Source of the DNA: Promethearchaeia archaeon
GTDB lineage: Archaea > Asgardarchaeota > Lokiarchaeia > Sigyniarchaeales > SOKP01
DNA: 32,000 nt
Assembly: GCA_046497275.1 (NCBI GenBank)
Contig: JAWOFX010000167.1
Location: 16,825-48,824 of the forward strand
Direction of reading: 5' to 3'
Shown here: positions 423 to 17,200 of the stretch, piece by piece
Layout of the letters: every line of letters begins with the position of its first letter
Numbering within the stretch: position 1 is the first letter of the stretch
Made by a program: the position numbers and the translations under genes
The notes under the pieces: generated by a model
The model's input: only the letters and a program-made list of their open reading frames with translations
The model's database searches: none
Told to the model about the DNA's origin: nothing

Positions 423-1808
423 TCACAAATATTTCTGATAATTCATTAAAAATAAATAATATCCAATCCTTGCATTTTCAATTGATTTTAATTGTACAAA
501 TTCATTAGCAGTATGGGCATATCCCCCTACTCCTAACCCTCCTGTTATATAGTCAGTCTCAAGGTTATTTTGAAGAATATTCAAAGGAGAGGCAGCTGCA
601 CTTATAGGCCAGAGTTCAGTAGATATATTCAATTCTTTAAAAGAATCGATAAGGCTTTTAACCAATTTAGAATCTTTAGAAACTCGTGAGCTCCTATATC
701 CTATAGTTTTAGATATATTTAAATTGGAGTTTATTAATGAAGATAATTTTTTTGCTTTTTCTTGTATTTCATCGAATATATTTTCAATTGGAACGTCATG
801 AGCAAACCTAATATCAATATTACATGAACAGGAATTAGGAACGGAATTTTTGATTCCAGTATTCAAATAACCTGATTTTAACGTGGAAATATTAAATGTG
901 GGGTCGAAAAGATACTTAAGAAAAAATTGTCTTGGATCTTGAAAAATAAAATTATTTACACCTGCTTTTTGCGCAATCTTTTCTATATTTATGCTAGATT
1001 TAAGATTTTCAATTAGCATATCCTCTTCATTATTTAATTGATAATCACTTGAGAGGGAATGAATGGATATTTGGTTATTTGAATAAAGTAAATTAATTAC
1101 TTTTATTAAATCTCTAGCTGGGTTTGGAATCACATTACTATAGGAAGAATGAACCTCTTCATTCTCGGAAGATGTTTCGATAGTGAGAGATATGATACCT
1201 TTATAACCCAGTTTTAAAACAGCTTTTCCCTCGAGATTTTGTTTTAATGCGGGATAATAAACACCATTGCATTCTTTTAATATTTTTTCATATTTTTGAA
1301 TAAAATATGGCAAGGAAGGAGAGCCAATTTCTTCCTCTCCGTCAAAAAGCAAATAAAGAGAAAATGGTAAAGCGTGTTTTGATTTTAATATTTTAATAAC
1401 ATTCAAAAAACAAATTAAAGGAGTTTTAGAATTATAAGCTCCTCTTGCAATAATACAATCCCCTAATTTAGGCAAGAAAGGCAATTTTCTTATTTTTGCT
1501 TCAAATGGAGGAGATATCCAACTCTTATTATCTTTAATTGGTTGAGTATCATACATCATATAAATTAATAAGGAAGATTCAGTATTTCCCTCTATATATG
1601 AGAGTAATATAGGATTAAATTCTCCCTTAAATTCAATAATATTCTCTGAAATTGGAGAAAGAGAAGATTTTATAAATTCAAGTGTTTTAGAGATTCCATC
1701 TGGATTATTAGATTCACTAGAAATTTGTAAAAATGGGGTTAATTCATTTTTAATAAATGATGTATTAGTTTTGGTTATTTTTTTTATTTCAATATTTTTT
1801 TCTGTCAT
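423..1808 (-). CDS. M20/M25/M40 (ArgE/DapE-like) metallo-hydrolase with an atypical metal site
   Basis: Motif order YMMYDTQP, ARGAYNSK, DGEEEIGSP, LGYKG, HSS, AHTANE matches the M20 peptidase layout. Confidence 0.85.
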   Translation of the reverse strand: MTEKNIEIKKITKTNTSFIKNELTPFLQISSESNNPDGISKTLEFIKSSLSPISENIIEFKGEFNPILLSYIEGNTESSLLIYMMYDTQPIKDNKSWISPPFEAKIRKLPFLPKLGDCIIARGAYNSKTPLICFLNVIKILKSKHALPFSLYLLFDGEEEIGSPSLPYFIQKYEKILKECNGVYYPALKQNLEGKAVLKLGYKGIISLTIETSSENEEVHSSYSNVIPNPARDLIKVINLLYSNNQISIHSLSSDYQLNNEEDMLIENLKSSINIEKIAQKAGVNNFIFQDPRQFFLKYLFDPTFNISTLKSGYLNTGIKNSVPNSCSCNIDIRFAHDVPIENIFDEIQEKAKKLSSLINSNLNISKTIGYRSSRVSKDSKLVKSLIDSFKELNISTELWPISAAASPLNILQNNLETDYITGGLGVGGYAHTANEFVQLKSIENARIGYYLFLMNYQKYL

Positions 1809-1884
1809 TTTTTTTCAATTCATTGTAAAATTAAATTGCTATTAATAATTACTCTAGATAAATATAAGCGAATCTCATAAATAT

Positions 1885-2280
1885 ATGAATGAAAAAAACT
1901 TATCAGATCCTTCAAATATTGATAGGTTGAGTCAAATAATCCAGAGTCTTAAAGAGAAGGCAAATTTATCTGGAATAATTCTATCCTATAGGGACGGTAG
2001 AACTATAGTAAAAGAGATTGAGGGAGTCCATCAGATTGATCAGTTTATACCTTTGATTGCTTCTGCATTACGTAGTGCTGAGGATTTGGGAATTACTGTT
2101 AATGGAAGTACTCTTCACAAAATAATTGCTCAATTAGAGAATTTTTCTATTATGATTTTAAAATGTAGTAGTAAAGATGTCTTTTTAACTTTAATTATCA
2201 ATGAAGCGTCTAATCTTAAACCCATTTTAGAAAATTATGAGGAACTTTCAAAAAAGATTGCAAAACATATAGAGATTTGA
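1885..2280 (+). CDS. Roadblock/LC7 (MglB-like) domain protein
   Basis: 131 aa with the roadblock pattern: helix, GIILSYRDGRTI strand pair, helix (ALIASALRSAEDLG), then three strands and a terminal helix. Confidence 0.8.
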   Translation: MNEKNLSDPSNIDRLSQIIQSLKEKANLSGIILSYRDGRTIVKEIEGVHQIDQFIPLIASALRSAEDLGITVNGSTLHKIIAQLENFSIMILKCSSKDVFLTLIINEASNLKPILENYEELSKKIAKHIEI

Positions 2281-2379
2281 AGGTATTAGTAAAATGAAGA
2301 GGAAAAATTAAATTATAACGTAATTAAATTCATATTATCATAATTAAAAATAATGTGGAAAAAAAAAAAGGGGATTTTA

Positions 2380-3261
2380 ATGAATAGAGATTTTATGAAA
2401 GATGAAACATTCAATGGAACATATCCATTTAAACCGAATTTTGAATCAATAAATGGATTTAATATGCATTATGTTGATGAAGGGAAAGGAGACCCAATCG
2501 TGTGTTTGCATGGAGAACCAACATGGAGTTATTTATATAGAAACTTCATAATCGAATTATCAAAGAATAATCGGCTAATAAGCCCAGATCAAATGGGTTT
2601 TGGCAAAAGCGATGTCCCGCAAGATAAAGAATATCGAATGGATGAACATATTGATAATCTAACAAAATTATTATTGAGGTTAGATTTAAAGAACATAACT
2701 TTAGTTATTCAAGACTGGGGCGGTCCGATTGGACTTGGGTTCGCTGTTAATAATCCAGAACGAATTAAACGTCTTGTTATCATGAATACATCTATTGGTG
2801 TAATGAGAGCTGATAAAAAGCCTTGGTATGCCACAGTTGAGGAGAAAGGAATTTATAAACAATTTATCATGAATATTGAGGGATTACTAAAAGGAGGTAT
2901 TTACAGGAAGGGGAATATTACAGATTCTATGATTAAAGCCTATACAGCACCATTTCCAAGCGAAGAATATTATATCGGAGCCTTTGCTTGGCCAAAAGAT
3001 ATTCCAGTTGGAGATTCCCATCCGAGTGCTCCGATTATGATGCATGTTCGAGAAAATTTAGATAAATTGTCCGAAAAGGATAAAATATTAATTTGGGGTA
3101 TGAAAGATCCCATCTTTCCGAAGAGAACAATTGATTGGTGGCATAAAATTTATCCAGATATAGAAACTCATAGAATTGAGAATGCTTCTCATTTTCTTCA
3201 AGAAGATGCTCCAGAAGAAATTATCAAAAATATAATGAATTTTCTAAAAAAGACACCCTAA
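2380..3261 (+). CDS. Haloalkane dehalogenase-family alpha/beta hydrolase (HLD-I-like)
   Basis: Motifs HGEPTWSYLYR, PDQMGFGKSD, nucleophile elbow QDWGG and HFLQED. ATG 2380 is preferred over 2353 because GGGGAT lies 5 nt upstream. Confidence 0.85.
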   Translation: MNRDFMKDETFNGTYPFKPNFESINGFNMHYVDEGKGDPIVCLHGEPTWSYLYRNFIIELSKNNRLISPDQMGFGKSDVPQDKEYRMDEHIDNLTKLLLRLDLKNITLVIQDWGGPIGLGFAVNNPERIKRLVIMNTSIGVMRADKKPWYATVEEKGIYKQFIMNIEGLLKGGIYRKGNITDSMIKAYTAPFPSEEYYIGAFAWPKDIPVGDSHPSAPIMMHVRENLDKLSEKDKILIWGMKDPIFPKRTIDWWHKIYPDIETHRIENASHFLQEDAPEEIIKNIMNFLKKTP

Positions 3262-3262
3262 T

Positions 3263-4213
3263 TTAAATTAGGATTAAAATCACACCTACAATGGTAAGTG
3301 AGACCCCAAAAAAACCTTTTATTGAAAGCTTTTCTCTGTTAAGTAAATAGCTTATTGGGAGAGAAAAAAGTGGATTAGCCGAAGCAATTAATGACATTAC
3401 AGAGGCACCTGCGATTCTTGCCGCTTCTGTGAAAAAATACACGCCTATTGAAGTTCCAATGAGAGAAGCAGATATGAGCCAAAACCACGTATTTTTTTTC
3501 TGTAAATTATTATCAAAATTTTCTTTTTTAACCATAATTAATAGGAGAAATAGTGCGAATGGAAATCTTATTACATTGCCAACAACTGAACTTAAATTTT
3601 CGTTAAGAAGGATTCTATTAATTTCATTTGTTGCATAATCTATCATTACTAACCCTATTGCCCATCCTAAAGAAGCGATCACAGCGAATATTGTGGGCGC
3701 AATTTCACTCTTTTTGTTAATGCTGTCTGATTTTCTGTTAGAGTTCTTAAATTCCATTGAATTTTCGCGATCGAGTACATTTAGCTTAATCTTATATTTT
3801 GAAATTATAAAAATTCCTACAGATATAAATAGAGCAGAGGGAATTAATAAAACATCAAATGGTCTTTCTAAGAATAATAAATCTAAAATAAATGTAAAAA
3901 AAGGAAAAGTCATAGATACTGCAAGAGCTTTTGTGGTTCCGAGTTCTTTTTGAGATTTAAAATAGAACGTGTCTCCAAGTACTTGTCCGAAGACAAAACT
4001 AATTATCAATATAAGCCATAATCCCCAAGGAAGGATAAATATTGCGGTGAAAATACCAAGAATCATTGAAAGGATTAAAAAAGTTATCAATCCAACTGCA
4101 GTTCTGAACATATTAATAAAAGTCGGTGAAACGTCATTTTCTACTCTGCGAAACATAGCATTTGAAGCAACAAATGATAAGTTCGCTAAGATTGCAACAA
4201 ATACTCCAATCAT
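3263..4213 (-). CDS. DMT/EamA family transporter
   Basis: About 10 hydrophobic segments in two repeats of 5, with GQVLGDTFYF and final G(V)SLTIVGVILIL patterns. Confidence 0.85.
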   Translation of the reverse strand: MIGVFVAILANLSFVASNAMFRRVENDVSPTFINMFRTAVGLITFLILSMILGIFTAIFILPWGLWLILIISFVFGQVLGDTFYFKSQKELGTTKALAVSMTFPFFTFILDLLFLERPFDVLLIPSALFISVGIFIISKYKIKLNVLDRENSMEFKNSNRKSDSINKKSEIAPTIFAVIASLGWAIGLVMIDYATNEINRILLNENLSSVVGNVIRFPFALFLLLIMVKKENFDNNLQKKNTWFWLISASLIGTSIGVYFFTEAARIAGASVMSLIASANPLFSLPISYLLNREKLSIKGFFGVSLTIVGVILILI

Positions 4214-4298
4214 CTAGTTGTATAAAGGCTGAATACTTTAAATTTTAATTGAATTTAGAATATTAAATTTAGATTATTAAAAGCAAATAGAAGAAGCA

Positions 4299-5723
4299 TT
4301 AAATACTTTGCATCCAAGCATTAATCAATTCAATTAGCTTGGGAGTGAATATAATTAATAGAATAACTATGCTAATCCCAAAAATAGCCCATAAAATCCC
4401 AATGATCCTGGCTTTTTTATCATTTACATCTTTCTTATAACGATGTCTTCTATGAAATGATTCTTTTGATTCTGCTTTATGATAAGCTTGTAATCCTTTT
4501 GGTGTTAATACAAGGTCTCCATCAATGATTTCCACCTCCCCACCCTTGATTAGTTTTTTGATATATTTTTCTGCTGTTTGAGCTCCAAGATCATTATAGA
4601 AGAAATCTGCATAACCTTGATAATATTTTCTACCTAACTCTAATCCATTTTTAAATGTCTCTATAAGCTCAGATTCAGATAACCGGTTTCCTCTAATGGT
4701 TGATAGTAAATATTTTGTGAGGATATTGTCATAAATATTATCAGATTTTACATTTATCGCGGAAATATCGAATTCCCACTCCTTTTTTATTAATTCTCGA
4801 AGAAATTCGTAACCTTCCTTAAGAATTAAAATACCAATGAAAAATCCGATAATGGGATCAATAAAGTAAAGATCAAAGATAGCAAAGCTAAGTCCAATTA
4901 ATACCCCAACGCTTATTAGAACATTCACTTCTGAGTCTTTTGAATCACTTAATAGAGACAGATTTCCCGATGAACGCCCCACAAGGCCCTTATAGTACAT
5001 TAAAGCATAATTTACTAAAATCGAGATCCCAATTATCAAATAGGATTCAAAATTCGGCTCTATCACTACCGGAGAGAATAATGCGCTTATATTGGACCAG
5101 ATCATCGTTATACCTGTAATTATCATTAAAGAGATGACTATAATACTCGCAATCCGGTCTTTCTTAAATCTAAGCCCTAAATAAATTATACCTATTTTTA
5201 TTAGATCTGTAAAATTCTCAAATCCCTCAGAAATCATTCCTTGACTGTCAATAGTCAGACCTAATAAAATTTTAGTGAGAGAAAGAATAACCAGAGAAAT
5301 AGCTGTGATTATCATCACAAATTTTTCTGTTAAAACTTTTCTCATCCAATGGCTGGTGACGATCATCATATAATAACTTGCTTCTATATAGGCTTTTCCT
5401 GTATCGGTTAGCTTGACTTTATCATCTGAGTCCAATGTGATGTATTTTTTGCTTCTGCCTAAGTGGATATATTCCTCTACATCATCTTCTTTAATACCTA
5501 ACTGTGACATTGTAGCTAAAAATAGCTTTTTCATCCATTTTTTAATCTCAGAAATGTCGTGAACTCCATCATATATCAAACATAAAAATCCATAAAATAA
5601 GTCAAATTGGGGTCCAGATCCTTCTCTTCCAAATCTATCCTTTTGCTCTCTTATTTTATTAAAGATAGCTTTTAGTTTAAAATCTTTTTTGGTTATTTTT
5701 GATTGTAAATCAGATATAGGCAT
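4299..5723 (-). CDS. Cation diffusion facilitator (CDF) transmembrane domain flanked by two winged-helix-like domains
   Basis: CDF-like TM2 (SQGMISEGFENFTD), TM5 (SLLSDSKDSEVN) and TM6 (IDPIIGFFIGILILKEGY). Both soluble regions end in wing motifs (VKLTDTGKAY; LVLTPKGLQAY). Confidence 0.75.
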   Translation of the reverse strand: MPISDLQSKITKKDFKLKAIFNKIREQKDRFGREGSGPQFDLFYGFLCLIYDGVHDISEIKKWMKKLFLATMSQLGIKEDDVEEYIHLGRSKKYITLDSDDKVKLTDTGKAYIEASYYMMIVTSHWMRKVLTEKFVMIITAISLVILSLTKILLGLTIDSQGMISEGFENFTDLIKIGIIYLGLRFKKDRIASIIVISLMIITGITMIWSNISALFSPVVIEPNFESYLIIGISILVNYALMYYKGLVGRSSGNLSLLSDSKDSEVNVLISVGVLIGLSFAIFDLYFIDPIIGFFIGILILKEGYEFLRELIKKEWEFDISAINVKSDNIYDNILTKYLLSTIRGNRLSESELIETFKNGLELGRKYYQGYADFFYNDLGAQTAEKYIKKLIKGGEVEIIDGDLVLTPKGLQAYHKAESKESFHRRHRYKKDVNDKKARIIGILWAIFGISIVILLIIFTPKLIELINAWMQSI

Positions 5724-5886: not shown

Positions 5887-7872
5887 CTATTTTGGTACAT
5901 CAACATCCATTTTCTTACGTTCTTCTAAAAGATCTTCGACTACTGAGGGATCTGCTAAGGTAGTGACGTTCCCAATATCCGTTCCTGCTGCGATAGCTTT
6001 CAAAACTCGTCTCATAATTTTCCCGCTTCTAGTTTTTGGTAATGCATCAGCAAATTGTACGACATCTGGTTGAAATACAGGACCAATTTCTTGTCTTACA
6101 TGCATCACAATTCCCTTTCTAAGTTCTTCTGTCTTTTCAACTCCTTCCATTAGCGTGACATACGCCCAGATAGCATTTCCCTTGATTTTATGTGGGAAAG
6201 GTGCGACAGCAGCTTCAGCTACTTTCGGATGACTTACGATGGCTGATTCGACTTCCATTGTTCCAATTCTATGTCCAGAAACCTTTATCACATCATCTAA
6301 TCGTCCTAATATCCAATAATATCCATCTTCATCCCTTCTTGCTCCATCTCCAGTATAATAATATCCCTCATATCTGCTCAAATAAGTGGATTTGAATCGT
6401 TCTGTATCACCCCAGACATCTCGAAGCATTCCTGGCCACGGTTGTGCCATGCAGAAGTATCCCCCCTCATGAGGTTCAGTCACCTCGTTCCCCTCCATAT
6501 CAAAGATAATGGGTTTAATTCCTAAGAAAGGTAAACAACAAGATCCAGGTTTAGTAGGGGTAGCCGTAGCAATAGGTGTCATTATAAACCCACCAGTTTC
6601 AGTTTGCCAGTAGGTATCAACAATAGGACAGCGTTCCTTTCCAATGACTCGATGATACCAAGTCCATGCTTCAGGATTAATAGGCTCTCCCACTGTTCCT
6701 AATACACGAAGAGAGCTTAAATCATGATTATTAACTGGATCTTCCCCAAATCTCATTAAAGCACGGATAGCGGTTGGTGCAGTATAAAATTGGGTTACTT
6801 TATGCCGCTCAACTATATCCCAGAATCGATCGACATCAGGGTATGTAGGAACACTTTCAAACATCAAGGTTGTAGCGCCATTTGCTAATGGTCCATACAC
6901 GATATAACTATGACCAGTTATCCATCCTATATCTGCCGTACAGTACCAAATATCTCCTTCTTTATAGTTGAATACGACTTTATGAGTATATGAGGTATAT
7001 AAAATATATCCTGCTGTCGTATGTTTAACACCCTTGGGTTTTCCAGTGGTTCCGCTCGTATAAAGGATAAAGAGGGTATCTTCTGAATCCATTTCTTCAC
7101 AATCACATTCTGTATCCATTCCATCAATAAAATCTTTATACCAGATATCCTTATCTGTGTGGGGTACTGGATTCCCAGTTCTCTCTACAACAATTATATT
7201 TTCGATAGTTGGCACATCATCAATAATTTGGGCTACATCATTCATTTTTGGATATGTTTTTCCTGCTCGTAAGGTCTGATCGCATGTAAATAAGAGTCTC
7301 GAATCCGAATCCTCAATTCTGTCTTTTACAGCTTCTTTTGAGAATCCACCGAATACAATAGAGTGGATAACCCCTATTCTGGAACAAGCAAGCATAATAA
7401 TAGCTAACTCTGGTATCATAGGGAGCCAAATAGTCACTCTATCTCCTTTTTCTAATCCCAATTTTTTCATACCATTTGCCACTTTGCATACTTCTTCCTT
7501 GAGCTGCTCATAGGTGAACTTTCTTACTTCCCCAGGTTCATCAGCTTCCCAGATAATTGCAATTTCATCACCTTTTCCATCCTCAATATGTCGGTCAATA
7601 CAATTATAACTTACATTTAATTTACCGCCAACAAACCATTTGCCAGGAAATAGGTCGGTTTTCTCCCAGACTTTATCATAAGGTTTGAACCAACTAATTG
7701 ATTTAGCTTGTTCATCCCAAAAACCTTCCATATCTTCGACAGATTTTTTATAAAGTTCTTTATATTCCGTTAAGGAAATTCCCGTTTTAGCATAGTCGGG
7801 ATTCAATTTAACCGGATCGAAGACACGTTTCTCTGAAAGAATGCTTTCCATTTTTTCTTCTTTTTCAGTCAT
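5887..7872 (-). CDS. acs: AMP-forming acetyl-CoA synthetase
   Basis: Motifs YTSGTTGKPKG, WYCTADIGWITGHSY, GTVGEPINP, DTYWQTETG, GRLDDVIKVSGHR and PKTRSGKIMRR. ATG 7872 is chosen over GTG 7881. Confidence 0.97.
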   Translation of the reverse strand: MTEKEEKMESILSEKRVFDPVKLNPDYAKTGISLTEYKELYKKSVEDMEGFWDEQAKSISWFKPYDKVWEKTDLFPGKWFVGGKLNVSYNCIDRHIEDGKGDEIAIIWEADEPGEVRKFTYEQLKEEVCKVANGMKKLGLEKGDRVTIWLPMIPELAIIMLACSRIGVIHSIVFGGFSKEAVKDRIEDSDSRLLFTCDQTLRAGKTYPKMNDVAQIIDDVPTIENIIVVERTGNPVPHTDKDIWYKDFIDGMDTECDCEEMDSEDTLFILYTSGTTGKPKGVKHTTAGYILYTSYTHKVVFNYKEGDIWYCTADIGWITGHSYIVYGPLANGATTLMFESVPTYPDVDRFWDIVERHKVTQFYTAPTAIRALMRFGEDPVNNHDLSSLRVLGTVGEPINPEAWTWYHRVIGKERCPIVDTYWQTETGGFIMTPIATATPTKPGSCCLPFLGIKPIIFDMEGNEVTEPHEGGYFCMAQPWPGMLRDVWGDTERFKSTYLSRYEGYYYTGDGARRDEDGYYWILGRLDDVIKVSGHRIGTMEVESAIVSHPKVAEAAVAPFPHKIKGNAIWAYVTLMEGVEKTEELRKGIVMHVRQEIGPVFQPDVVQFADALPKTRSGKIMRRVLKAIAAGTDIGNVTTLADPSVVEDLLEERKKMDVDVPK

Positions 7873-8145
7873 TTTTTTCACAAGATTTATAGTAAAGAAT
7901 AATTAACACTATAGAAAAGATTAATATTAGATAAAATAATAAATTTTTTACGAACAATTTTTATGTGATCATAAGTCGAAATTATGAAATTCAAACATAA
8001 TGTTTAGATTTTCTACAATCACGCATTCAGAATCATAAAATCTTCTAATAAATCAATATTGCATATAAAAAATTATTAAAGAAAAATGAAGATAGTAACA
8101 TTTATCAAGTATCCAAATTATTCAAAATAATTTCGATCATAAAAA

Positions 8146-10044
8146 ATGGAAAATTTAGAGAAGTTAGATTCAAATTGGAGAAAAAAGTGGAGCGATAAAG
8201 AAATCGACATTGAACATGCTATTAAAAAGATCATACCAGGTAATAGAGTATTTATTGATTCTGGATGTTCCGAACCACAAGCCCTCACTAAAGAATTAAT
8301 TAGACAATCAGAACGTTTAGTTGATACGGAAATAATTCATTTTCTTACCATCGGCCCGAATAAATACTTTCAAACAGATAAACGAGAGGATGTTTTTAGA
8401 CATAATGCCCTTTTTATTGGTGATACCTTGCGAGAGGAGGTAAATAGTGGACAAGCAGATTACACCCCGATTAATGTGAGTGAAATACCGAAATTGTTTC
8501 TATCCGGAAGAAAATATATTGATGTCGCGTTAATTCAAGTTTCTCTTCCAGATCAATATGGTTTTTGTTCATTCGGGATAAATGTTGATATTGCAAAACC
8601 AATTGCTCAGTCAGCCTATTTGACGATAGCAGAAATAAATCCCCAAATGCCAAGGACATTGGGGAATAGTTTCATTCATTTAAAAGAAATAGATTATTTT
8701 ATTTATCACGATCATCCTCTCTTAAAATTCCATTTTGATGAACCCACTAAAGTTGTAAAAAAAATAGGGAAAAATCTTTCAAATTTAGTACAAGATAAAT
8801 CAACGATACATATAGGCTTTGGAGATTTACCTCATAATATTCTGAAATACTTATCAAAGAAGAAAGATTTAGGAATGCACTCTCATTATGTAACAGATGC
8901 AATAATTCCGCTGATTGAGAATGGAGTTTTAACTTGCAGGAAGAAAAATTTTCATCCTGAAAAGATCGTTACGAGTTTTGCACTCGGTTCAAGAAAATTA
9001 TATGATTTTGTCGATAATAATCCTTATATCGAATTTTATCCTTCGGATTATGTATGTAATCCGAAATATATTAGTAAAAATAAAAATATGATATCTATTA
9101 ATTCAGCTCGTCAAATAGATTTAACGGGACAAGTCAATGCATCTACAGAAGGATATTCCTTTTATTCTGGATTTGGAGAGACCGTTGATTTTATTAGGGG
9201 AGCAGCTTTTTCAGAGGGTGGAAAACCAATCATTATTATGCCTTCCACTACAAGAGATGAAAAGCAATCAAGAATAGTTTCTCATTTGGATGAAGGAGCA
9301 GGAATCTTACTATCAAGGGGTGATGTTCATTATGTCGTAACTGAATGGGGTGTTGCATATTTACACGGAAAATCTATTAGAGAAAGAGTAATTGAGTTGA
9401 TTAGTATTGCGCATCCCAAATTTAGGGAACAATTATTGCATGAGGCAAAATATTTAAATTATATTTATTCTGATCAAATGCTTCCGGTGGATGAGAATGG
9501 TTTTATAGTAAGATATCCAAAAGAATATGAAACTATCTTTAAAACTAAGAACGGAGAGGAAATTTCTATAAGACCATTAAAGACTACTGATGAAGAGATG
9601 CTTAAAGAATTATATTATTCTCTAAATGAAAGAGATCGATACTTAAGGTTTTTCGAAGTTAGAAATGAATTTGCTCATACCAAAACCCAAAATGAAGTCA
9701 ATATTGATTATAATGATATTTTCTCAATAGGGGCATTTATTGGCGAGATTGGGAATGAGAAAATGATTGGAAATGCTACATATTATTATAATCCTAATAA
9801 AAACTCAGCAGAGTTTAGTTTTGTGGTACATAAAGATTGGAGGGGTGTGGGATTAGGCTCATATCTTTATAATTATATGATAATAATCGCGAAGGAGAAA
9901 GGAATCCAATCCTTCTACGGAAATATTCATATCGAAAATAAGGGGACTGTACATGTTATAAAAAAGGCAGGGAAAGTGAGGATAACGCCCCCAGAACTTG
10001 GAGGAAAAGAACTTTTTTATGAAGTTGATTTTGAGGAAGAATAA
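8146..10044 (+). CDS. Acetyl-CoA hydrolase/CoA-transferase-fold domain fused to a C-terminal Pat-type GNAT acetyltransferase
   Basis: The N-terminal ~440 aa follow the family I (Cat2/AbfT-like) CoA-transferase pattern (SINSARQIDLTGQV, VDFIRGA, DVHYVVTEWG, IAHPKFRE). The C-terminal part has RYLRFF and AEFSFVVHKDWRGVGLG GNAT motifs. Confidence 0.9.
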   Translation: MENLEKLDSNWRKKWSDKEIDIEHAIKKIIPGNRVFIDSGCSEPQALTKELIRQSERLVDTEIIHFLTIGPNKYFQTDKREDVFRHNALFIGDTLREEVNSGQADYTPINVSEIPKLFLSGRKYIDVALIQVSLPDQYGFCSFGINVDIAKPIAQSAYLTIAEINPQMPRTLGNSFIHLKEIDYFIYHDHPLLKFHFDEPTKVVKKIGKNLSNLVQDKSTIHIGFGDLPHNILKYLSKKKDLGMHSHYVTDAIIPLIENGVLTCRKKNFHPEKIVTSFALGSRKLYDFVDNNPYIEFYPSDYVCNPKYISKNKNMISINSARQIDLTGQVNASTEGYSFYSGFGETVDFIRGAAFSEGGKPIIIMPSTTRDEKQSRIVSHLDEGAGILLSRGDVHYVVTEWGVAYLHGKSIRERVIELISIAHPKFREQLLHEAKYLNYIYSDQMLPVDENGFIVRYPKEYETIFKTKNGEEISIRPLKTTDEEMLKELYYSLNERDRYLRFFEVRNEFAHTKTQNEVNIDYNDIFSIGAFIGEIGNEKMIGNATYYYNPNKNSAEFSFVVHKDWRGVGLGSYLYNYMIIIAKEKGIQSFYGNIHIENKGTVHVIKKAGKVRITPPELGGKELFYEVDFEEE

Positions 10045-10232: not shown

Positions 10233-10934
10233 ATGGAAATTAAGGGGATAATTAAATCAATAGATAAATGGGATCAAAGTATCATCCTAAAAATTAATGG
10301 GAGAGGAGGGAAATTCATAACCACTTTATTGCGTCTTTTTTCATTTCTTGGCAGAGAGACAATATGGTTATTTTTACTGGCTTATTTTTCATTTGTATGG
10401 TTTGATCCTAAAATTTTCTCATACATTGGGGTTGGTTATACTTTAGGATTGATTATTATTGTTCCTATTAAACAAATTGTCCATAGAACGAGACCTTTTA
10501 ATGAATTGGAAAAAATTATATTATATGAACGGAAGTCGACTTCTGGCAGTTTTCCATCATGGCATTCTTATAATACCGCTTCGCAAGCGATTATAATGGG
10601 GTATCTCTTTTCTTCATCTTTACTTACGATTATATTTTTATTTATCGCTGGAGTGGTGGCCTATTCCAGAGTACATGTCGGATCTCATTATCCGAGTGAT
10701 GTTATAAATGGCTATATTATTGGAATAGTTGCTGGATTAAGTAGTATTTTTCTATTTGGGAAATATTTATTTAATTTCATCATATATCTGAATGAAATTA
10801 GCAACATTAATTTTGTATTTTATTCATTCAATCCCTTAATATTTAGCAATATTGGATATATAATGTTATGTATATTAATATTTGGAGGGATTTTTATTCT
10901 CTCGATTTACCGATATTTAAAGGGTATTTTGTAA
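10233..10934 (+). CDS. PAP2-family membrane phosphatase
   Basis: C1 KQIVHRTRP, C2 SFPSWH, C3 SRVHVGSHYPSD, plus multiple TM helices. Confidence 0.85.
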   Translation: MEIKGIIKSIDKWDQSIILKINGRGGKFITTLLRLFSFLGRETIWLFLLAYFSFVWFDPKIFSYIGVGYTLGLIIIVPIKQIVHRTRPFNELEKIILYERKSTSGSFPSWHSYNTASQAIIMGYLFSSSLLTIIFLFIAGVVAYSRVHVGSHYPSDVINGYIIGIVAGLSSIFLFGKYLFNFIIYLNEISNINFVFYSFNPLIFSNIGYIMLCILIFGGIFILSIYRYLKGIL

Positions 10935-10971: not shown

Positions 10972-12210
10972 TCAGTGGTCTAGTTGCTTTTTCTTATTGA
11001 AGAGTTGTTTTAATTCATCCAAAACTTGACCGCGAACATTTTGTTCACTTGTTTCTCTAATTTGATCCGATGTTCTTATCTCGATTGGAACTCCTGATTG
11101 GGCGATATGAAATGCTCCACTCTCAACAGCATTTAATCGAGCGTCAATTTCATTTAATTGTTCTGAAATGCTTTCTGAAAGTTTAATAACAGCATTCATC
11201 ACTTCCTCTAAAGTATTACCTAAACCTTCTACTTTTTTCAATGTGGGATCTGTTAGATTATTAGTACTGATAATATCCTTTAAATATTTAGAGAATTCCG
11301 GTTTGGAAAATTTGGAATAGATTGAACTTAGGTAAGTTTCATAATTAAAATAATATTCCTTGTTTTTGAAAAGATCTTCCATTTTTTCTTTTATGAGTTC
11401 GATATTCAATTTTATTTTTGGATCATCCTTAATATCTGGATCAAACTTGTGAATTAAGATTAAGATATATGGAATCTCTTCTAATATCACTAAAATATCA
11501 AGGATTTGCCTAAAATAATCAAAAGATTCATCAAACCTTTCTGGATCTTGAACATCGATGACATAGATAAGCAAATCTATTTGTAGAAAATATTTTTCAG
11601 GTTCCTTTAGGTATTTATCCCTATATGATTTTTGACCCCCGAAATCCCAAATAAATAAATCTAAATTTTGTTTCTCAAAAGTTTGTCGATTCACTCCTTT
11701 AGTTGGTTCTAAATTAGAGAGTTCTTGTATACCCTTTTCCATCCCAACTTTTGAAACGATAGCAGTTTTACCAGCATTATCTAAACCAACAACGATAACT
11801 TTTTGAGCATTTTTATCTAATATTTGTGTTTCTCCATTAATTTGTTTTATTAGATTACTAAGTGTTATAGCTTTTTTTATATTAATCTCTAAATCGGAAT
11901 ATTTTTTTTTATAGATTTCTAATTTTATTTCTACATCTTGAGAGAACTCAGAATCTTTCTTAGACTTGCTTTGTTCTTTAATAAATTTGTTTAATGGTGC
12001 ATCTTTATCTAGTTGAGCTAATTCTTCGATATTTGAAGTTTTTAAAATCTCACTGATTACTCGTGCTTGGTTCTTACCTAAAAATTTATAAGCTGAAATA
12101 GGGAGCTTAAGAAGATCTTCAAGATTATTAAATTCTTTCTCTAAATATTCCTCATCTAAGAATCTTCTAAAAACTTCTATTACATCGGAACTTTTAGTAT
12201 CTGAAGTAAT
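10972..12210 (-). CDS. Arf/Rag-like small GTPase with N-terminal HhH-like extension and C-terminal coiled coil (~412 aa; start probably non-canonical)
   Basis: I translated upstream of the listed ATG 11742. The frame stays open to an in-frame TGA at 12217-12219 and includes the G1 motif GLDNAGKT. Downstream are G2 PT, G3 WDFGGQ, G4 HKFD and G5 SSI. ATT at 12210 lies 6 nt after GAGGAGTGA. Confidence 0.85.
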   Translation of the reverse strand: MTSDTKSSDVIEVFRRFLDEEYLEKEFNNLEDLLKLPISAYKFLGKNQARVISEILKTSNIEELAQLDKDAPLNKFIKEQSKSKKDSEFSQDVEIKLEIYKKKYSDLEINIKKAITLSNLIKQINGETQILDKNAQKVIVVGLDNAGKTAIVSKVGMEKGIQELSNLEPTKGVNRQTFEKQNLDLFIWDFGGQKSYRDKYLKEPEKYFLQIDLLIYVIDVQDPERFDESFDYFRQILDILVILEEIPYILILIHKFDPDIKDDPKIKLNIELIKEKMEDLFKNKEYYFNYETYLSSIYSKFSKPEFSKYLKDIISTNNLTDPTLKKVEGLGNTLEEVMNAVIKLSESISEQLNEIDARLNAVESGAFHIAQSGVPIEIRTSDQIRETSEQNVRGQVLDELKQLFNKKKQLDH

Positions 12211-12534: not shown

Positions 12535-13452
12535 ATGCCATCCAATGTCCATAATGATGAATTTTTAGAATTAACCATAAAGAACCCTTGTTGCGACTCT
12601 CCAAAAGTATCACAAGAGGATGGATTTTATGTTTGTATGAATTGTGGACTTGTTTTTTCCCGGATTATAGATGATTCTCCTCGCCGCGCGTTTACTGCTG
12701 AAGAGATTGAAAAACGAAAAACTAATGAGCGTGTCTATAGTCCTATAGGTCCGCGTACAATAATAAGAGGCAGTCGAGATGCGAGAGGTACATTATTAAG
12801 TCCTAAATATAAATCCAAATTTAATAGATTAGCAAAAATACATCGATCACTTACAACAAGCTTTGAACGAAATCTATGGATTGCCCTTCCAAATTTGCAA
12901 AGACTACAAAAAAAATTATGTATCCCAGATCAAGTAGCTGATGATGCTTTACGGATATATACACAAACCGTTAAAAAAAAATTAACGATGGGGCGTTCAA
13001 TAGATACTCTATTATCTGCTTCTATTTTTTGTGCCTTACGTATTCATGGAATACCCAGAACCTTAGAAGAAATAACTAGTGCGGCTCAAATTACAAAGAA
13101 AAAAGTAATTAAAAGTTATAGGTTGATATTTATGGAAATTTTACCGAAGCTAAATCTTAAAGTCCAACACTTCACTTCGGATCGCTATGTGGATAAGTTT
13201 AATGATGAATTAAATCTCTCTATGAAATGTAGAAATATTGCTGTAAAGTTAATTAAGAATGCAAGAGAAAATGGTTTTAATTCCGCTGGAAAGGATCCTA
13301 AAGGAATCGCTGCTGCATCTATTTATATTGCTTCTAAAATGTGTAATGAAAATAAAACTCAGAAAGAAGTCTCGGATTTGGCAAACATAACAGAAGTAAC
13401 TTTAAGAATGCGTGTAAAAGATCTTCAATCTTTTAATAGTATTCAAAGTTAA
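12535..13452 (+). CDS. tfb: Transcription initiation factor IIB (TFB)
   Basis: N-terminal Zn ribbon (PCC...CMNCG), RRAF B-reader remnant, two cyclin repeats (GRSIDTLLSASIF; GKDPKGIAAASIY) and C-terminal HTH (TQKEVSDLANITEVTLRMR). Confidence 0.95.
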   Translation: MPSNVHNDEFLELTIKNPCCDSPKVSQEDGFYVCMNCGLVFSRIIDDSPRRAFTAEEIEKRKTNERVYSPIGPRTIIRGSRDARGTLLSPKYKSKFNRLAKIHRSLTTSFERNLWIALPNLQRLQKKLCIPDQVADDALRIYTQTVKKKLTMGRSIDTLLSASIFCALRIHGIPRTLEEITSAAQITKKKVIKSYRLIFMEILPKLNLKVQHFTSDRYVDKFNDELNLSMKCRNIAVKLIKNARENGFNSAGKDPKGIAAASIYIASKMCNENKTQKEVSDLANITEVTLRMRVKDLQSFNSIQS

Positions 13453-13498: not shown

Positions 13499-16400
13499 TT
13501 ATATAGGGATTAATTTTTCCTCCTCTTCAAAGAGTGGGAGATTCCGGAGCATTTGATTTATCATAGGCAAATATTTTTTTATTCTGTCTTTCCAGGAATC
13601 AAGAATGAAATCAAGTATCTCCAACTGAAAGAGTTCACTAACTATTTTTCTTATTTTTCCGAGGTTTTTTAAATATTCCTCTACATTAATTTCTATTTTA
13701 TTAAAATCTATACCTGCTTTTTTTGCGCTAATAGTATAAAGAAGTAGCATCAAAGAACTTATTTTATAATCTTTTACTTCTGAACGTTTTTTAGCTAACT
13801 CTAAATAATATTCTGAGGCTTTTTTATAATCATCATTGGATAAAGCTTTCAATATATCTTGATAATGCCTTTTCTTTAATGCTTTTCGTTTTTTAAATAT
13901 CTCTTGAAATTCCGATTTATTATCTTTTAGTTTTTGACTTAATATATCTATTTTTTGATCCATTTCTATTAATTTCTTAGATTTCTCTCCCCTTTCTTCT
14001 CTAGATAATATTTTTTCTTGAAACTCCCCCTTCTTTTCTTTCTTTAAATAAGATCTAATTAACTCTTGTTCAGGTTTAAACAAGATTAATTTTTCAGAAT
14101 ATATTTTTAGAATCATTGAAATAAGATCATCAAAATTAGCATTCCAAGCGTCTATTAGTTTTATAAATAATCTAACTTCTGGTAATTTTCCAATTTCTGG
14201 GACTTGCTTATAATACTGATCAAGATTATCTAAAGCGATCTTTTCTCTCTCATTAAATAAATTTATTAGAGAAGAAATGATTAAACAAATTCCAGCATGT
14301 TTGTTGAATCCTTTTTCGTTTAGTTCTGGAATTAATTTGAGATAAGATGAAGCAGCTTCTAAATAGTTCTGTTCTGATATATTCTTAAGTATTGATTCAT
14401 AATATCTATGCTTCATCAACTTTCGTTTAGCTATATCTTCTTTCTCATTTATTATTGCCTTAGATAAATTGCTAACCGTAGTTTTCAGTTCCTCTTTATC
14501 AATTGTAATTTTTTCTCTAACTTCTGCTTTAGATATCTTAACATAATCTATACCTAAAATATCATAAAGGATTTTTTTTTCCTCTTCGAATAAAGGTAAT
14601 TCTTCCATAAATGAGAAAGCTTGGTTTAATTTTTTCTCATCCTTGACTTTATAGAGGTCTATAATATACTCAATTAATAAAATTGGGAACGTATCCAAAA
14701 AAAGCTGATTTGATTTTGTTTTTTTCTTAGTGTATTTAATAAATTCATTCATGTTTTTTTGTTTCATTTTAATTAAACAAATTACAGCAAATGAGACTGC
14801 TGCAAGATAATATTTTCTCAATTCATTCAATTTATCTACTGTGTTTTCATAAATTTCTACAGCGTTCTGGTAATTTTCATTTTCTAAGAAATTCAACGCC
14901 TCTTTAAAATAGGCCCTTTTTAACCCTCTTCTCTGTCTAAATTCGATTTCTTTATCTAATCGTGCATCTTGAGATTTTTTTTCTATTATTGAAAGCCTTT
15001 CTTGTAATGATTTCTTTTTTAAAGTAGTTTCAATCTCTTTCGCTCTTGAGGCGATTTTTTCTTCCTCTGTTGCAGAGAGTTTGTTATATACTTGCTTTTT
15101 GTAAAACTTATCCTCAATTTTATCTAAATAACTCAATGCAGATGAGAGATCCTCCATTTCAATATATAGTTCCGATATAGCTTTATTTAGTTCGTCAAAA
15201 TCTGGCTCATAATCCTCTAAATAAGCATTTGCAATATTTTTTGCTTTTTTAATTAAATCAACAGCATAGATAATACTAGAACGATTTTTCCCTACTTCAA
15301 TAGCATTCAGAGCTTCGCTTTTAATTATATTAATAAATAATTTACTGAGTTCTTGTGATTTTTCATAAAGCATCTGGTCTCTATAAACAAGATTAGCTTT
15401 TTCTAAAAGATCCTCAACTTTCTCATATCCATAGAGGGTACTAATATCTTTGAAACTGTCAATTAGAGAAGAAAAAACAAATATTAAATAATCTTTTTGA
15501 ATTTCTTCTGTTTCAATTTTAAAATATAGATTAAATAATTCTTCTAATTGATTTGCTTCTAATAATATATTCATAGCTTCACAGAGAATTTGATCTGCTA
15601 ATCTTTTCTCCCCAATATTCGTTAAATATTCAGAATGTAATTCTAAATATTTTGCTGCTTTTATATGATTATTCTTCTTGGAGAATTGTTCAGCTTTTTC
15701 TAATTTAGTGTTGTTAATGTTTTCGATAATCATAATTTCTACTTGCCTAAATGATCTGATTGTCTCAACTCCTGTTCTTAAATCCATTTGAAGAGCTTTT
15801 CGCCTTAAAATCTTAATTCTATCTTCTATTTCTGAACTATATTCAGTTAATTTCTTTTTTAATTCTAAAGAATTTAGTTCATTTAAAAGATAAGTGGCCA
15901 TTCCGAAATCATGTTTATGTAAAAATTGTCTAATAATCTCCTCTAAACTCTCATCCAGATCAACTTTTTCAACATTAAATGCCTCCCATAAATTCTCAAT
16001 TTCATCATAAGTTCTTTTTGCGTCGTATGTCTCCTCATGTTGAATATTTTTTTGAAGAATTTTTATTAAAATATCTGCAAGTTTGTGGGTGAACCGTTCC
16101 ATTGCTTCAAATAAACCTTCTCTTTGATATGTATGGATGCTTATATACAATTGCTCCCTGGCGGCTTCTAAGTTGCCGATTGAAACTAAATAATCTGCTG
16201 CTGATAATACCTTTTCTATTAAATCCTCTAAAGTTTGTTTAATTTGTTCGTGAGGGAGCCTCTCTAAAATAGTAAATGCATTCTCTACTCTACATGCAGA
16301 GATCCAAGAATTAATGGCTAATCTAAATGATTTTATTATCAAGTCTTTATCTTTTAGTTCTATTAATGACCATTGAGCAGCATTCTCATATTGTCGTGCG

Positions 16401-17200
16401 GAAAATTCATAATCCCTTTTATTAAATAACTTATTACCTTCACGAATCATCGTTTCAGCATAAAGTCTTTTATATTCATTAGCTTTTTTCTCATTTACTT
16501 TGTCCAAAATTTTTGCTGCTTCTAAAAAAAGATTTAATTGTGAATATAAATATGCTGCTTGCTCGCTGATGATATAGTATTCTTCTTTATTAAAAACATT
16601 ACTAATAAATGCCGCCTTTTTAATTGCTTTTGCAGCTTCAAAAAAATTTTTTTGATTATAATAAAAATTCGCTTGCATAATTAAAATGGGAAACCGAAGC
16701 CATGCATTCTCTAAATTAAGTGGTTTATCACCTGAAATCATAGCAGAAGCTAAACAATGAAGAGCTTGACGAAAATCTTTGGGATGGAGATTAACAAATG
16801 CCTCAAAATCAGGGTATTTGATCCAAGATTCTTCTAATAATTCTATAGTAGATTTAGATAAGATTCCGTCTTCATTATTATACATCAAGACTGTTGGAAT
16901 ATCTCTCTTGATTTTCTTGAAAATTTCCAATATTATATTAAATAGCTCACGTTGTTCTTCATCTAAGGGATTCATAAAATAGAGAATTCCATCTACGCTT
17001 GGGATAATCTCATCAAAATTTGCTGTTAAACTTGTAATAACATCAATTTCTAACTCGCAAACATTTTCTAATATATGTATTTCTCTATTCCATTTCACAT
17101 ATGTTTCCTTATCTTTTCCGATTTCATTCAAAGCAGTAGAAACATAAGGAAGTGAAAGATCCGAATTACCTAATATTAAAATTCTGAATATATAACGCAT
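13499..17200 (-). CDS. Large alpha-solenoid (TPR/SNAP-like) protein with N-terminal degenerate small-GTPase-like domain and three C-terminal repeats
   Basis: The N-terminal strands YIFRILILG, DGILYF and IPTVLMYN mimic the Rab/Ras fold but lack GKS/T. The rest is helical, with A-x-x-x-Y/F TPR-like patterns. Confidence 0.7.
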   Translation of the reverse strand: MRYIFRILILGNSDLSLPYVSTALNEIGKDKETYVKWNREIHILENVCELEIDVITSLTANFDEIIPSVDGILYFMNPLDEEQRELFNIILEIFKKIKRDIPTVLMYNNEDGILSKSTIELLEESWIKYPDFEAFVNLHPKDFRQALHCLASAMISGDKPLNLENAWLRFPILIMQANFYYNQKNFFEAAKAIKKAAFISNVFNKEEYYIISEQAAYLYSQLNLFLEAAKILDKVNEKKANEYKRLYAETMIREGNKLFNKRDYEFSARQYENAAQWSLIELKDKDLIIKSFRLAINSWISACRVENAFTILERLPHEQIKQTLEDLIEKVLSAADYLVSIGNLEAAREQLYISIHTYQREGLFEAMERFTHKLADILIKILQKNIQHEETYDAKRTYDEIENLWEAFNVEKVDLDESLEEIIRQFLHKHDFGMATYLLNELNSLELKKKLTEYSSEIEDRIKILRRKALQMDLRTGVETIRSFRQVEIMIIENINNTKLEKAEQFSKKNNHIKAAKYLELHSEYLTNIGEKRLADQILCEAMNILLEANQLEELFNLYFKIETEEIQKDYLIFVFSSLIDSFKDISTLYGYEKVEDLLEKANLVYRDQMLYEKSQELSKLFINIIKSEALNAIEVGKNRSSIIYAVDLIKKAKNIANAYLEDYEPDFDELNKAISELYIEMEDLSSALSYLDKIEDKFYKKQVYNKLSATEEEKIASRAKEIETTLKKKSLQERLSIIEKKSQDARLDKEIEFRQRRGLKRAYFKEALNFLENENYQNAVEIYENTVDKLNELRKYYLAAVSFAVICLIKMKQKNMNEFIKYTKKKTKSNQLFLDTFPILLIEYIIDLYKVKDEKKLNQAFSFMEELPLFEEEKKILYDILGIDYVKISKAEVREKITIDKEELKTTVSNLSKAIINEKEDIAKRKLMKHRYYESILKNISEQNYLEAASSYLKLIPELNEKGFNKHAGICLIISSLINLFNEREKIALDNLDQYYKQVPEIGKLPEVRLFIKLIDAWNANFDDLISMILKIYSEKLILFKPEQELIRSYLKKEKKGEFQEKILSREERGEKSKKLIEMDQKIDILSQKLKDNKSEFQEIFKKRKALKKRHYQDILKALSNDDYKKASEYYLELAKKRSEVKDYKISSLMLLLYTISAKKAGIDFNKIEINVEEYLKNLGKIRKIVSELFQLEILDFILDSWKDRIKKYLPMINQMLRNLPLFEEEEKLIPI

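Follow-up and report, generated by a model that had tools for sequence, protein, structure and literature searches.

The window analysed here, a stretch of 32,000 nucleotides from a Promethearchaeia archaeon, an Asgard archaeon of the Loki type (assembly GCA_046497275.1, contig JAWOFX010000167.1), contains two genes arranged head to head: acs, which encodes Acs, an acetyl-CoA synthetase of the AMP-forming type, and a gene whose product joins a CoA-transferase-like domain to an acetyltransferase domain of the GNAT family, hereafter the fusion. The acs gene occupies positions 5887..7872 on the minus strand and encodes 661 amino acids (aa), and the fusion gene (8146-10044, plus strand) encodes 632 aa. 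As opened, the acs reading frame began at GTG 7881 (5887-7881, minus strand); since the upstream regions of acs relatives align on MTEKEEK, we place the start at ATG 7872 instead, which leaves a spacer of 273 base pairs (bp) between the two genes. An earlier note, made from the sequence alone, had described an Asgard acs facing a fusion gene about 270 bp away, and this description stands: the reading frames lie where it had put them, and the close relatives all come from Promethearchaeota/Lokiarchaeota records.

The acs product scores above the cut-offs of two curated profiles (NF001208, 982.3 bits against a cut-off of 657; TIGR02188, 953.1 bits against 725) and carries the Pfam domains ACAS_N, AMP-binding and AMP-binding_C. 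It is the one bona fide Acs of the source genome, which is 98.9% complete and in which the runner-up match is only 30% identical. As the earlier note had also pointed out, the protein keeps the lysine of the A10 motif PxxxxGK, here PKTRSGK at residues 615-621, with the codon of Lys621, computed from the sequence, at 6019..6021 on the minus strand. This lysine is invariant among 18 Acs sequences from three Asgard families, and in bacterial Acs it is the acetylation site for Pat, AcuA and related enzymes.

The spacer itself (7873..8145) is AT-rich, with both genes facing outward, and presumably serves as a shared or back-to-back archaeal promoter region, as an alignment of 17 intergenic regions suggests. 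An element at 7987-8009 has a conserved, AT-rich counterpart in most relatives, AAATTTAAACATTTTATTTATAA (loci L013-L029), from which the window copy has diverged more, and it is possibly the B recognition element (BRE)/TATA region of one of the two promoters. Twelve metatranscriptome runs from salt-lake studies contain 0.27-0.47 of the sampled words, from which we draw nothing about expression or habitat.

The two domains of the fusion

The C-terminal part of the fusion is a GNAT domain covering approximately residues 470-632 (9553..10044, plus strand; PF00583 at 527-609), in which the Pat-like motifs noticed earlier are all present: RYLRFF at residues 498-503, AEFSFVV at 555-561 and WRGVGLG at 565-571, the last containing the acetyl-CoA P-loop RGVGLG (566-571). 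When residues 440-632 were searched against the PDB the best matches were, in order, PatZ of E. coli (9IT0, E 3.6e-17), Pat of Sulfolobus (3F8K), PatA of Streptomyces lividans (4NXY) and Pat of Mycobacterium (4ORF), and the eight top sequence matches were all protein lysine acetyltransferases. Small-molecule GNATs of the phosphinothricin type, whose kinship would have spoken against the proposal in the earlier note, trail behind and match only from E 9e-5. The AEFSFVV motif aligns with AEFAVLV of PatZ, placing Glu556 (codon 9811-9813, plus strand), the candidate catalytic glutamate, opposite Glu809, the proposed catalytic base of PatZ (PMC12184503). The Y-x-R-F-F motif and the linker 'VR-YP..E....NGE...RP' occur in both proteins as well, and among the GNAT profiles of NCBIfam the domain matches mycobacterial Pat best. 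Only two Pat-type GNAT matches were obtained in the source genome, both of them CoA-transferase fusions. By its sequence, then, the fusion is a member of the Pat-type GNAT group, with lysine acetylation as its predicted activity.

What precedes this GNAT is none of the regulatory domains of known Pat enzymes: Pfam found in the fusion neither the NDP-forming acyl-CoA synthetase-like (ACD-like) domains of type I/II Pat (CoA_binding, Succ_CoA_lig, ATP-grasp_5) nor a cyclic-nucleotide-binding, ACT or NADP+-binding domain of the type III kind. Instead residues 1-440 (8146..9465, plus strand) form a 4-hydroxybutyrate-CoA-transferase-like domain with Pfam matches to PF02550 (residues 10-190, 97.7 bits) and PF13336 (281-434, 206.4 bits). 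This part matches solved 4-hydroxybutyrate CoA-transferases in phmmer at E 1e-115 to 1e-91, the PDB entries 9vag (E 3e-115) and 3eh7 falling within 1e-115 to 1e-111. An AlphaFold2 model of the fusion, built on an alignment of 71 rows, reached a predicted local distance difference test score (pLDDT) of 91.2 and a predicted template-modelling score (pTM) of 0.88, and Foldseek superposed it on 3gk7 and 2oas with template-modelling scores (TM) of 0.93-0.95. Thus both the two-domain Pfam architecture and the fold of a family I CoA-transferase of the 4-hydroxybutyrate CoA-transferase/Cat2 subfamily are present. The best NCBIfam match of this part is TIGR03948, butyryl-CoA:acetate CoA-transferase, at 254 bits and so below the cut-off of 675.

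The residues required of active family I CoA-transferases, namely the catalytic glutamate of the HTEM/HSEM motif and the GxGGQ loop, are both absent from the window fusion, and in this respect the earlier note was right to call the domain a pseudo-CoA-transferase. Alignments to solved enzymes show His247 (8884..8886, plus strand) in the place of the catalytic glutamate (Glu238 of AbfT, Glu249 of RipA), HTEM having become HSHY, and Glu345-Thr346 (9178..9183, plus strand) replacing the second glycine and the glutamine of the GxGGQ oxyanion loop, with GFGGQLDF turned into GFGETVDF. Among 121 close homologues (69-97% identity) position 247 is His in 114, Tyr in 4, Gln in 2, Leu in 1 and Glu in none; position 345 is Glu in 68 and Asp in 53, and position 346 is Thr in 120. 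This rules out, for the window clade, CoA transfer by way of a glutamyl thioester as it is known from the active enzymes. The domain is nevertheless clearly under selection, since its mean top-residue frequency across the same homologues (0.85) is on a par with that of the GNAT (0.86).

Looking beyond this clade, about 90 of the best 150 clusters at 50% identity are fused forms. Both the glutamate and the GG pair are kept in 38/54 stand-alone relatives and in 30 of the 66 fused cluster representatives, with eleven different replacements of the glutamate, those in the other fused clades including Phe, Val, Cys, Gln, Gly, Pro and Ala. The sister sequence L097 carries Phe at 247 and Asp at 345. 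Such repeated, non-equivalent loss in the fused proteins suggests that catalysis is dispensable there, as would be expected of a regulatory domain.

Linkage to acs across Asgard genomes

We examined 80 related loci from genome assemblies and counted linkage in the 70 whose upstream sequence extends over 1 kb or more. In 66 of these 70 acs lies upstream of the fusion gene, divergent in every case, with a gap of less than 420 bp in 48 loci and of 0.7-5.8 kb, occupied by unrelated inserted genes, in the other 18. The inserts are heterogeneous (Rce1-like, ferredoxin, DUF4386, TPR, TPR-TIR and radical SAM genes), and for this reason we rejected them as functional partners of the pair. Two of them encode large proteins, a TPR-TIR protein of 787 aa at L015:1986-4349 and a TPR protein of 646 aa at the same place in L075.

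An ortholog search over 300 genomes of the phylum, grouped by GTDB, placed all orthologues at 67% identity or more in one family, f1 (63/68 genomes), so that any spread of the linkage across classes must rest on separate loci in two other families, f9 and f18. The labels "Hermodarchaeota", "Odinarchaeota" and "Thorarchaeota" carried by records among the 80 loci were accordingly discarded as proof of phylum-wide distribution, as GTDB puts all these orthologues in f1. One further locus, L028 (DATKTW010000124.1), is titled 'Candidatus Nanopelagicaceae bacterium' and its fusion is 74% identical to the Loki protein; this contig is probably mis-binned. In-frame TGA codons seen in some orthologues were considered as recoding and dismissed, since they lie upstream of the real start codon.

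The separate loci do show linkage, each in an arrangement of its own. In f9 (Thorarchaeota) the fusion, 43% identical to that of the window, is divergent from a transporter-then-acs unit in 7/7 loci, where Acs is 53-58% identical to the window protein and the transporter is of the MFS type or, at locus L103, an acetate-channel protein of the GPR1/FUN34/YaaH kind. In f18 the fusion (41% identical) is convergent with acs in both genomes, at a distance of 70-430 bp, with Acs 79-80% identical. The remaining neighbours of the pair in the window are all missing from the f9 loci. In a tree built from 75 members of the family the three acs-linked groups stay apart, each with full support, and the approximately unbiased (AU) test rejects a single clade of acs-linked copies (delta lnL 460, p-AU 9e-56); the constrained group was chosen after the tree had been seen, although the test is decided by a very wide margin. 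On the family tree the state of linkage changes at least three times. Conservation across Asgard genomes, on which the earlier proposal hung, is in this way borne out on three non-sister branches with three arrangements. A Thorarchaeota chromosome (L104:7992-11885) has two tandem copies of the fusion beside the MFS and acs genes, the second reading HTERFGD rather than HTEMFSD.

Members of the family that lie apart from acs have other neighbours. The source genome holds a second fusion, split at contig ends that overlap identically (C97:1784-3180 and C16:1-738; L002 and L003), whose two parts are 55% and 47% identical to the window copy and which keeps HSEV and GIGGQ. It is followed by a gene for an HhH-GPD glycosylase with a winged helix-turn-helix (wHTH), a neighbour found also in L107, L113 and L098. 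In one genome each of f24 and f18, a further copy of the fusion gene has behind it, in the same orientation, a gene for an ADP-forming acetyl-CoA synthetase (L123:6495-10682 in f24; L125:3-4246 in f18), a fused form of 719 or 734 aa with the domains CoA_binding_2, Succ_CoA_lig and ATP-grasp_5. Time and again the fusion family is thus associated with enzymes that work at the acetate/acetyl-CoA node, and its pairing with acs has been maintained or regained across Asgard classes.

A candidate acetylation switch and its alternatives

To these data we added a prediction of the complex between the full fusion and Acs residues 525-664, run on alignments that we had built ourselves and with three controls. 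The pair scored 0.63 and the best of the controls 0.00; the mark for this score is reached by 58/80 solved complexes and by 2/110 mismatched pairs, counts that, with alignments of our own making, apply here only approximately. The runs share at least 91% of their contacts, with a partner pLDDT of at least 86. The predicted interface lies on the GNAT only (fusion residues 496-512, 545-558, 591-597 and 617-621), with Acs Lys621 contacting residues 501-503 and 593 of the fusion and Glu556 contacting Acs residues 617-619. The model thus supports the compatibility of the pair with Pat-type catalysis, with Lys621 placed in the GNAT cleft.

Taken together, these results suggest that the fusion is most likely a Pat-class protein lysine acetyltransferase of an uncharacterised kind, with the neighbouring Acs as its main client. 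In the full form of this reading, to which we give somewhat better than an even chance, the fusion would acetylate Lys621 of Acs in a manner dependent on acyl-CoA, its disabled CoA-transferase domain would be a regulatory or scaffolding module that binds acyl-CoA, and unlinked sirtuins or HDAC-family enzymes would reverse the modification. Specifically, the GNAT would take acetyl-CoA or another short acyl-CoA and, with Glu556 as general base, acylate Lys621 in the A10 motif; this would block the adenylation half-reaction, so that acetate activation would stop when acyl-CoA is plentiful, until the acyl group was removed by a sirtuin or an HDAC-type enzyme of the genome. The CoA-transferase-like domain would stand in for the ACD-like regulatory domain of PatZ, binding acyl-CoA or CoA without turnover and gating or scaffolding the GNAT. 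Acetylation of Acs by the fusion is a prediction from the sequences and the modelled complex. For the CoA-transferase fold the role of allosteric sensor, which the earlier note had assigned to it, is proposed by analogy with PatZ, and so are its putative ligand and the allostery itself.

Candidate enzymes for the reverse step do exist elsewhere in the source genome, as the earlier note had envisaged: we found five Sir2 and four HDAC-family genes. A deacetylase gene beside the fusion gene is absent from all but one of about 110 context loci, the exception being L091:8043-9215, where the gene directly after the fusion belongs to the HDAC family and shares 62% identity with one of the four in the source genome. 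Because the deacetylase is unlinked, the module cannot be described as self-contained, and this part of the earlier proposal falls. A possible pairing of another kind is seen at locus L126 of the source genome (G000:C7, 363-4225), where one of the Sir2 genes (363-1145) has its place immediately upstream of a gene for an acyl-CoA ligase of the ANL family (1497-3119, PQTVIGK), with a second ligase (3215-4225, PLTAVGK) convergent to the first; the Sir2 gene and the PQTVIGK ligase may form a sirtuin/ligase pair.

Several observations weigh against a dedicated Acs switch with a passive sensor. The fusion gene is followed by a block of genes conserved in 55-69 of the 80 loci, comprising PAP2 (10233-10934), a Gtr1/RagA-like GTPase (10972-11742, minus strand), transcription factor B (TFB; 12535-13452) and a 1233-aa protein without a Pfam match (13499-17200, minus strand), and given this larger block and the confinement of close orthologues to f1, the f1 linkage alone could be inherited synteny. 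On the far side of acs, a CDF transporter gene (4299-5723) is kept in 0/80 related loci. Co-occurrence of Acs and fusion is also only partial within f1: genus g4 has Acs in 2/3 genomes and the fusion only as an unlinked Glu-type copy, and both proteins are lacking at 1e-60 in the two genomes of genus g3, which are 99-100% complete. No acs was found near the f1 paralogues, whose neighbour is an HhH-GPD glycosylase gene, near the fusions of f2 (Harpocratesius), f24 and f20 (Heimdall), near that of a Desulfobacterales member or in four other clades, nor in six distant contexts (Desulfobacterales L094, L097, the P0277 type, P0280, P0140 and P0151), and linkage as a property of the whole family is rejected by these cases. 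Moreover the acs-linked copies of Thorarchaeota all keep HTEM and GGQ, and those of f18 keep the catalytic glutamate and the GGQ loop; linkage to acs therefore does not depend on a dead domain, catalytic loss being a trait of one Loki family and not of the association with acs, and in the Thor and f18 copies the domain may work as an enzyme and not as a passive sensor. Even in the window clade, the strong conservation seen at His247 and Glu/Asp345 would suit a functional site that has been remodelled no less than one that is dead. Finally, a comparable result in the complex prediction would probably be obtained for any Pat-type GNAT with any Acs, so that the prediction says little about specificity.

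Other readings of the fusion have to be considered. The fusion might be a general protein acetyltransferase acting on many targets, such as other ANL ligases, chromatin proteins or enzymes of central metabolism, with Acs at most one client and the adjacency largely a matter of historical synteny. Such breadth would resemble PatZ, which has many substrates (PMC12184503), and it would suit a genome with about 13 further ANL-family ligases, several of them with PxxxxGK, and only two Pat-type GNATs for all; the reach of f1 synteny to unrelated genes and the lack of acs linkage in most bacterial relatives point the same way. Synteny does not sit easily, however, with the recurrence of acs linkage in three non-sister clades, in three arrangements and with otherwise differing neighbours, or with the observation that inserted unrelated genes have not dispersed the pair, and we estimate the chance of a given gene lying within three genes of a single acs at ~0.2% per genome. 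We hold the general enzyme to be rather unlikely. The fusion could also be a bifunctional metabolic enzyme, its CoA-transferase handling acetate or acyl-CoA and its GNAT N-acetylating a small metabolite, with proximity to acs reflecting a common acetate/acetyl-CoA pool and not regulation. This would accommodate the copies in which the catalytic glutamate and GGQ persist (30/66 fused representatives, all Thor copies and the f1 paralogues), the TIGR03948 match below its cut-off, the acetate or MFS transporters next to the Thorarchaeota genes and the ADP-forming synthetases of L123 and L125. It is distinctly improbable for the window protein, as the window clade lacks the glutamate and with it CoA transfer of the known kind, the solved structures nearest to the GNAT all belong to protein acetyltransferases and the catalytic glutamate of Pat is in place, and the lysine loop of Acs sits in the cleft of the predicted complex.

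Two further proposals concern the altered residues themselves. His247 and Glu/Asp345 could constitute a catalytic site of a new kind, perhaps a dyad of His and carboxylate acting as an acyl-CoA thioesterase or as a self-acylating centre, in which case the domain would be a re-tooled enzyme. The near-fixation of His (114/121), Glu/Asp (121/121) and Thr346 (120/121) is what this would predict, where mere decay would be expected to drift, and by homology with solved CoA-transferases such as AarC and AbfT positions 247 and 345 would flank the thioester of bound acyl-CoA. The many non-equivalent replacements in other fused clades instead suggest simple loss, the sister L097 combines Phe247 with Asp345, and we know of no precedent; a new catalytic site is highly improbable. 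A broader conjecture, which we consider quite unlikely, is that the module senses chemically, through a covalent bond or a remodelled site, and is no passive ligand pocket. In Thorarchaeota and in the Loki paralogue, the Glu-type members would form a glutamyl-CoA thioester that reports the balance of acyl-CoA, free acid and free CoA to the GNAT, the site of the acs-linked Loki clade would have been rebuilt into a conserved His247-Glu/Asp345 pair, either locked or newly active, and the family would be a dedicated and so far undescribed control layer over both kinds of acetyl-CoA synthetase, the AMP-forming Acs and the ADP-forming ACD, among Asgard archaea as well as many anaerobes.

Relation to known acetylation switches

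If the fusion is, as we favour, an Acs-directed Pat-class enzyme, its closest working analogue is PatZ (YfiQ), the type I Pat of E. coli and Salmonella enterica that works with the sirtuin CobB (PDB 9IT0/9ISQ) and whose GNAT is the closest solved relative of that in the fusion. The two GNATs have the same catalytic glutamate, the same Y-x-R-F-F motif and the same linker, both proteins carry a large N-terminal domain that derives from an acyl-CoA-metabolising enzyme and has lost a catalytic residue, and the known client of PatZ is the A10 lysine of Acs. In PatZ the catalytically inactive domain binds acetyl-CoA and activates or opens the GNAT (PMC12184503). The differences lie in the regulatory domain, which is NDP-forming acetyl-CoA synthetase-like and about 700 aa long in PatZ but has a family I CoA-transferase fold of about 440 aa here, in the archaeal host, and in the adjoining acs gene; the fusion is known here from sequence and models.

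The closest genetic analogue is the acsA/acuA pair of Bacillus subtilis, where acsA is transcribed divergently from acuA, so that a GNAT gene stands head to head with acs as it does in the window (PMC11255334). AcuA acetylates the active-site lysine of AcsA and also forms a complex with the C-terminal domain of Acs. It differs in being a single-domain GNAT of another subfamily and in having its deacetylase AcuC encoded in the same operon (acuABC), whereas no deacetylase is linked to the fusion locus.

The domain plan, a small-molecule-binding N-terminal domain followed by a Pat-type GNAT with Acs as target, is that of the type III (class I-beta) lysine acetyltransferases (KATs) (PMC6456759), such as Mycobacterium Pat (cAMP), AAPatA of Micromonospora and other actinobacteria (ACT) and Myxococcus MxKat (NADP+), although the sensor fold of the fusion is another one and much larger. 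Among archaeal enzymes, Pat of Sulfolobus solfataricus (3F8K) is also a Pat-type GNAT with a YLRFF motif and the catalytic-glutamate context EFSxVVH, but it is a single domain of 160 aa, and the substrate reported for it is not Acs but Alba, a chromatin protein (type IV in PMC6456759). The N-terminal part compares with AbfT/Cat2 and Yersinia RipA, family I CoA-transferases to which it is 34-42% identical with TM of 0.92-0.95; relative to these it has His247 for the catalytic glutamate, GxGET for GxGGQ and HIGFGDLP for QLGIGAIP, and has the GNAT added at its C terminus.

The metabolic switch that works by acetylating acetyl-CoA synthetase reversibly is textbook knowledge for bacteria and eukaryotes (Pat/CobB, AcuA/AcuC and SIRT with ACSS) and, to our knowledge, is almost unexplored in archaea. 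The regulatory domains classified so far for prokaryotic GNAT lysine acetyltransferases are ACD-like (types I and II) or, in type III, cAMP-binding, ACT or NADP+-binding (PMC6456759, PMC12184503); a CoA-transferase fold is absent from both classifications, and our literature search for a CoA-transferase-GNAT acetyltransferase found no description of one. The locus is thus most likely a variant of the known Pat/Acs switch with a regulatory module outside the published classifications, to which the CoA-transferase fold, active or disabled, would be added as a further class. It singles out one enzyme and one substrate that can be put to the test, in the lineage of archaea most closely related to eukaryotes. 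Since the family is large and repeatedly linked to the acetate node, a single study of its biochemistry would give an annotation to thousands of genes that are named only "GNAT family N-acetyltransferase", and the presence of Glu-type and His-type copies within one genome offers a natural experiment on the transition from enzyme to sensor.

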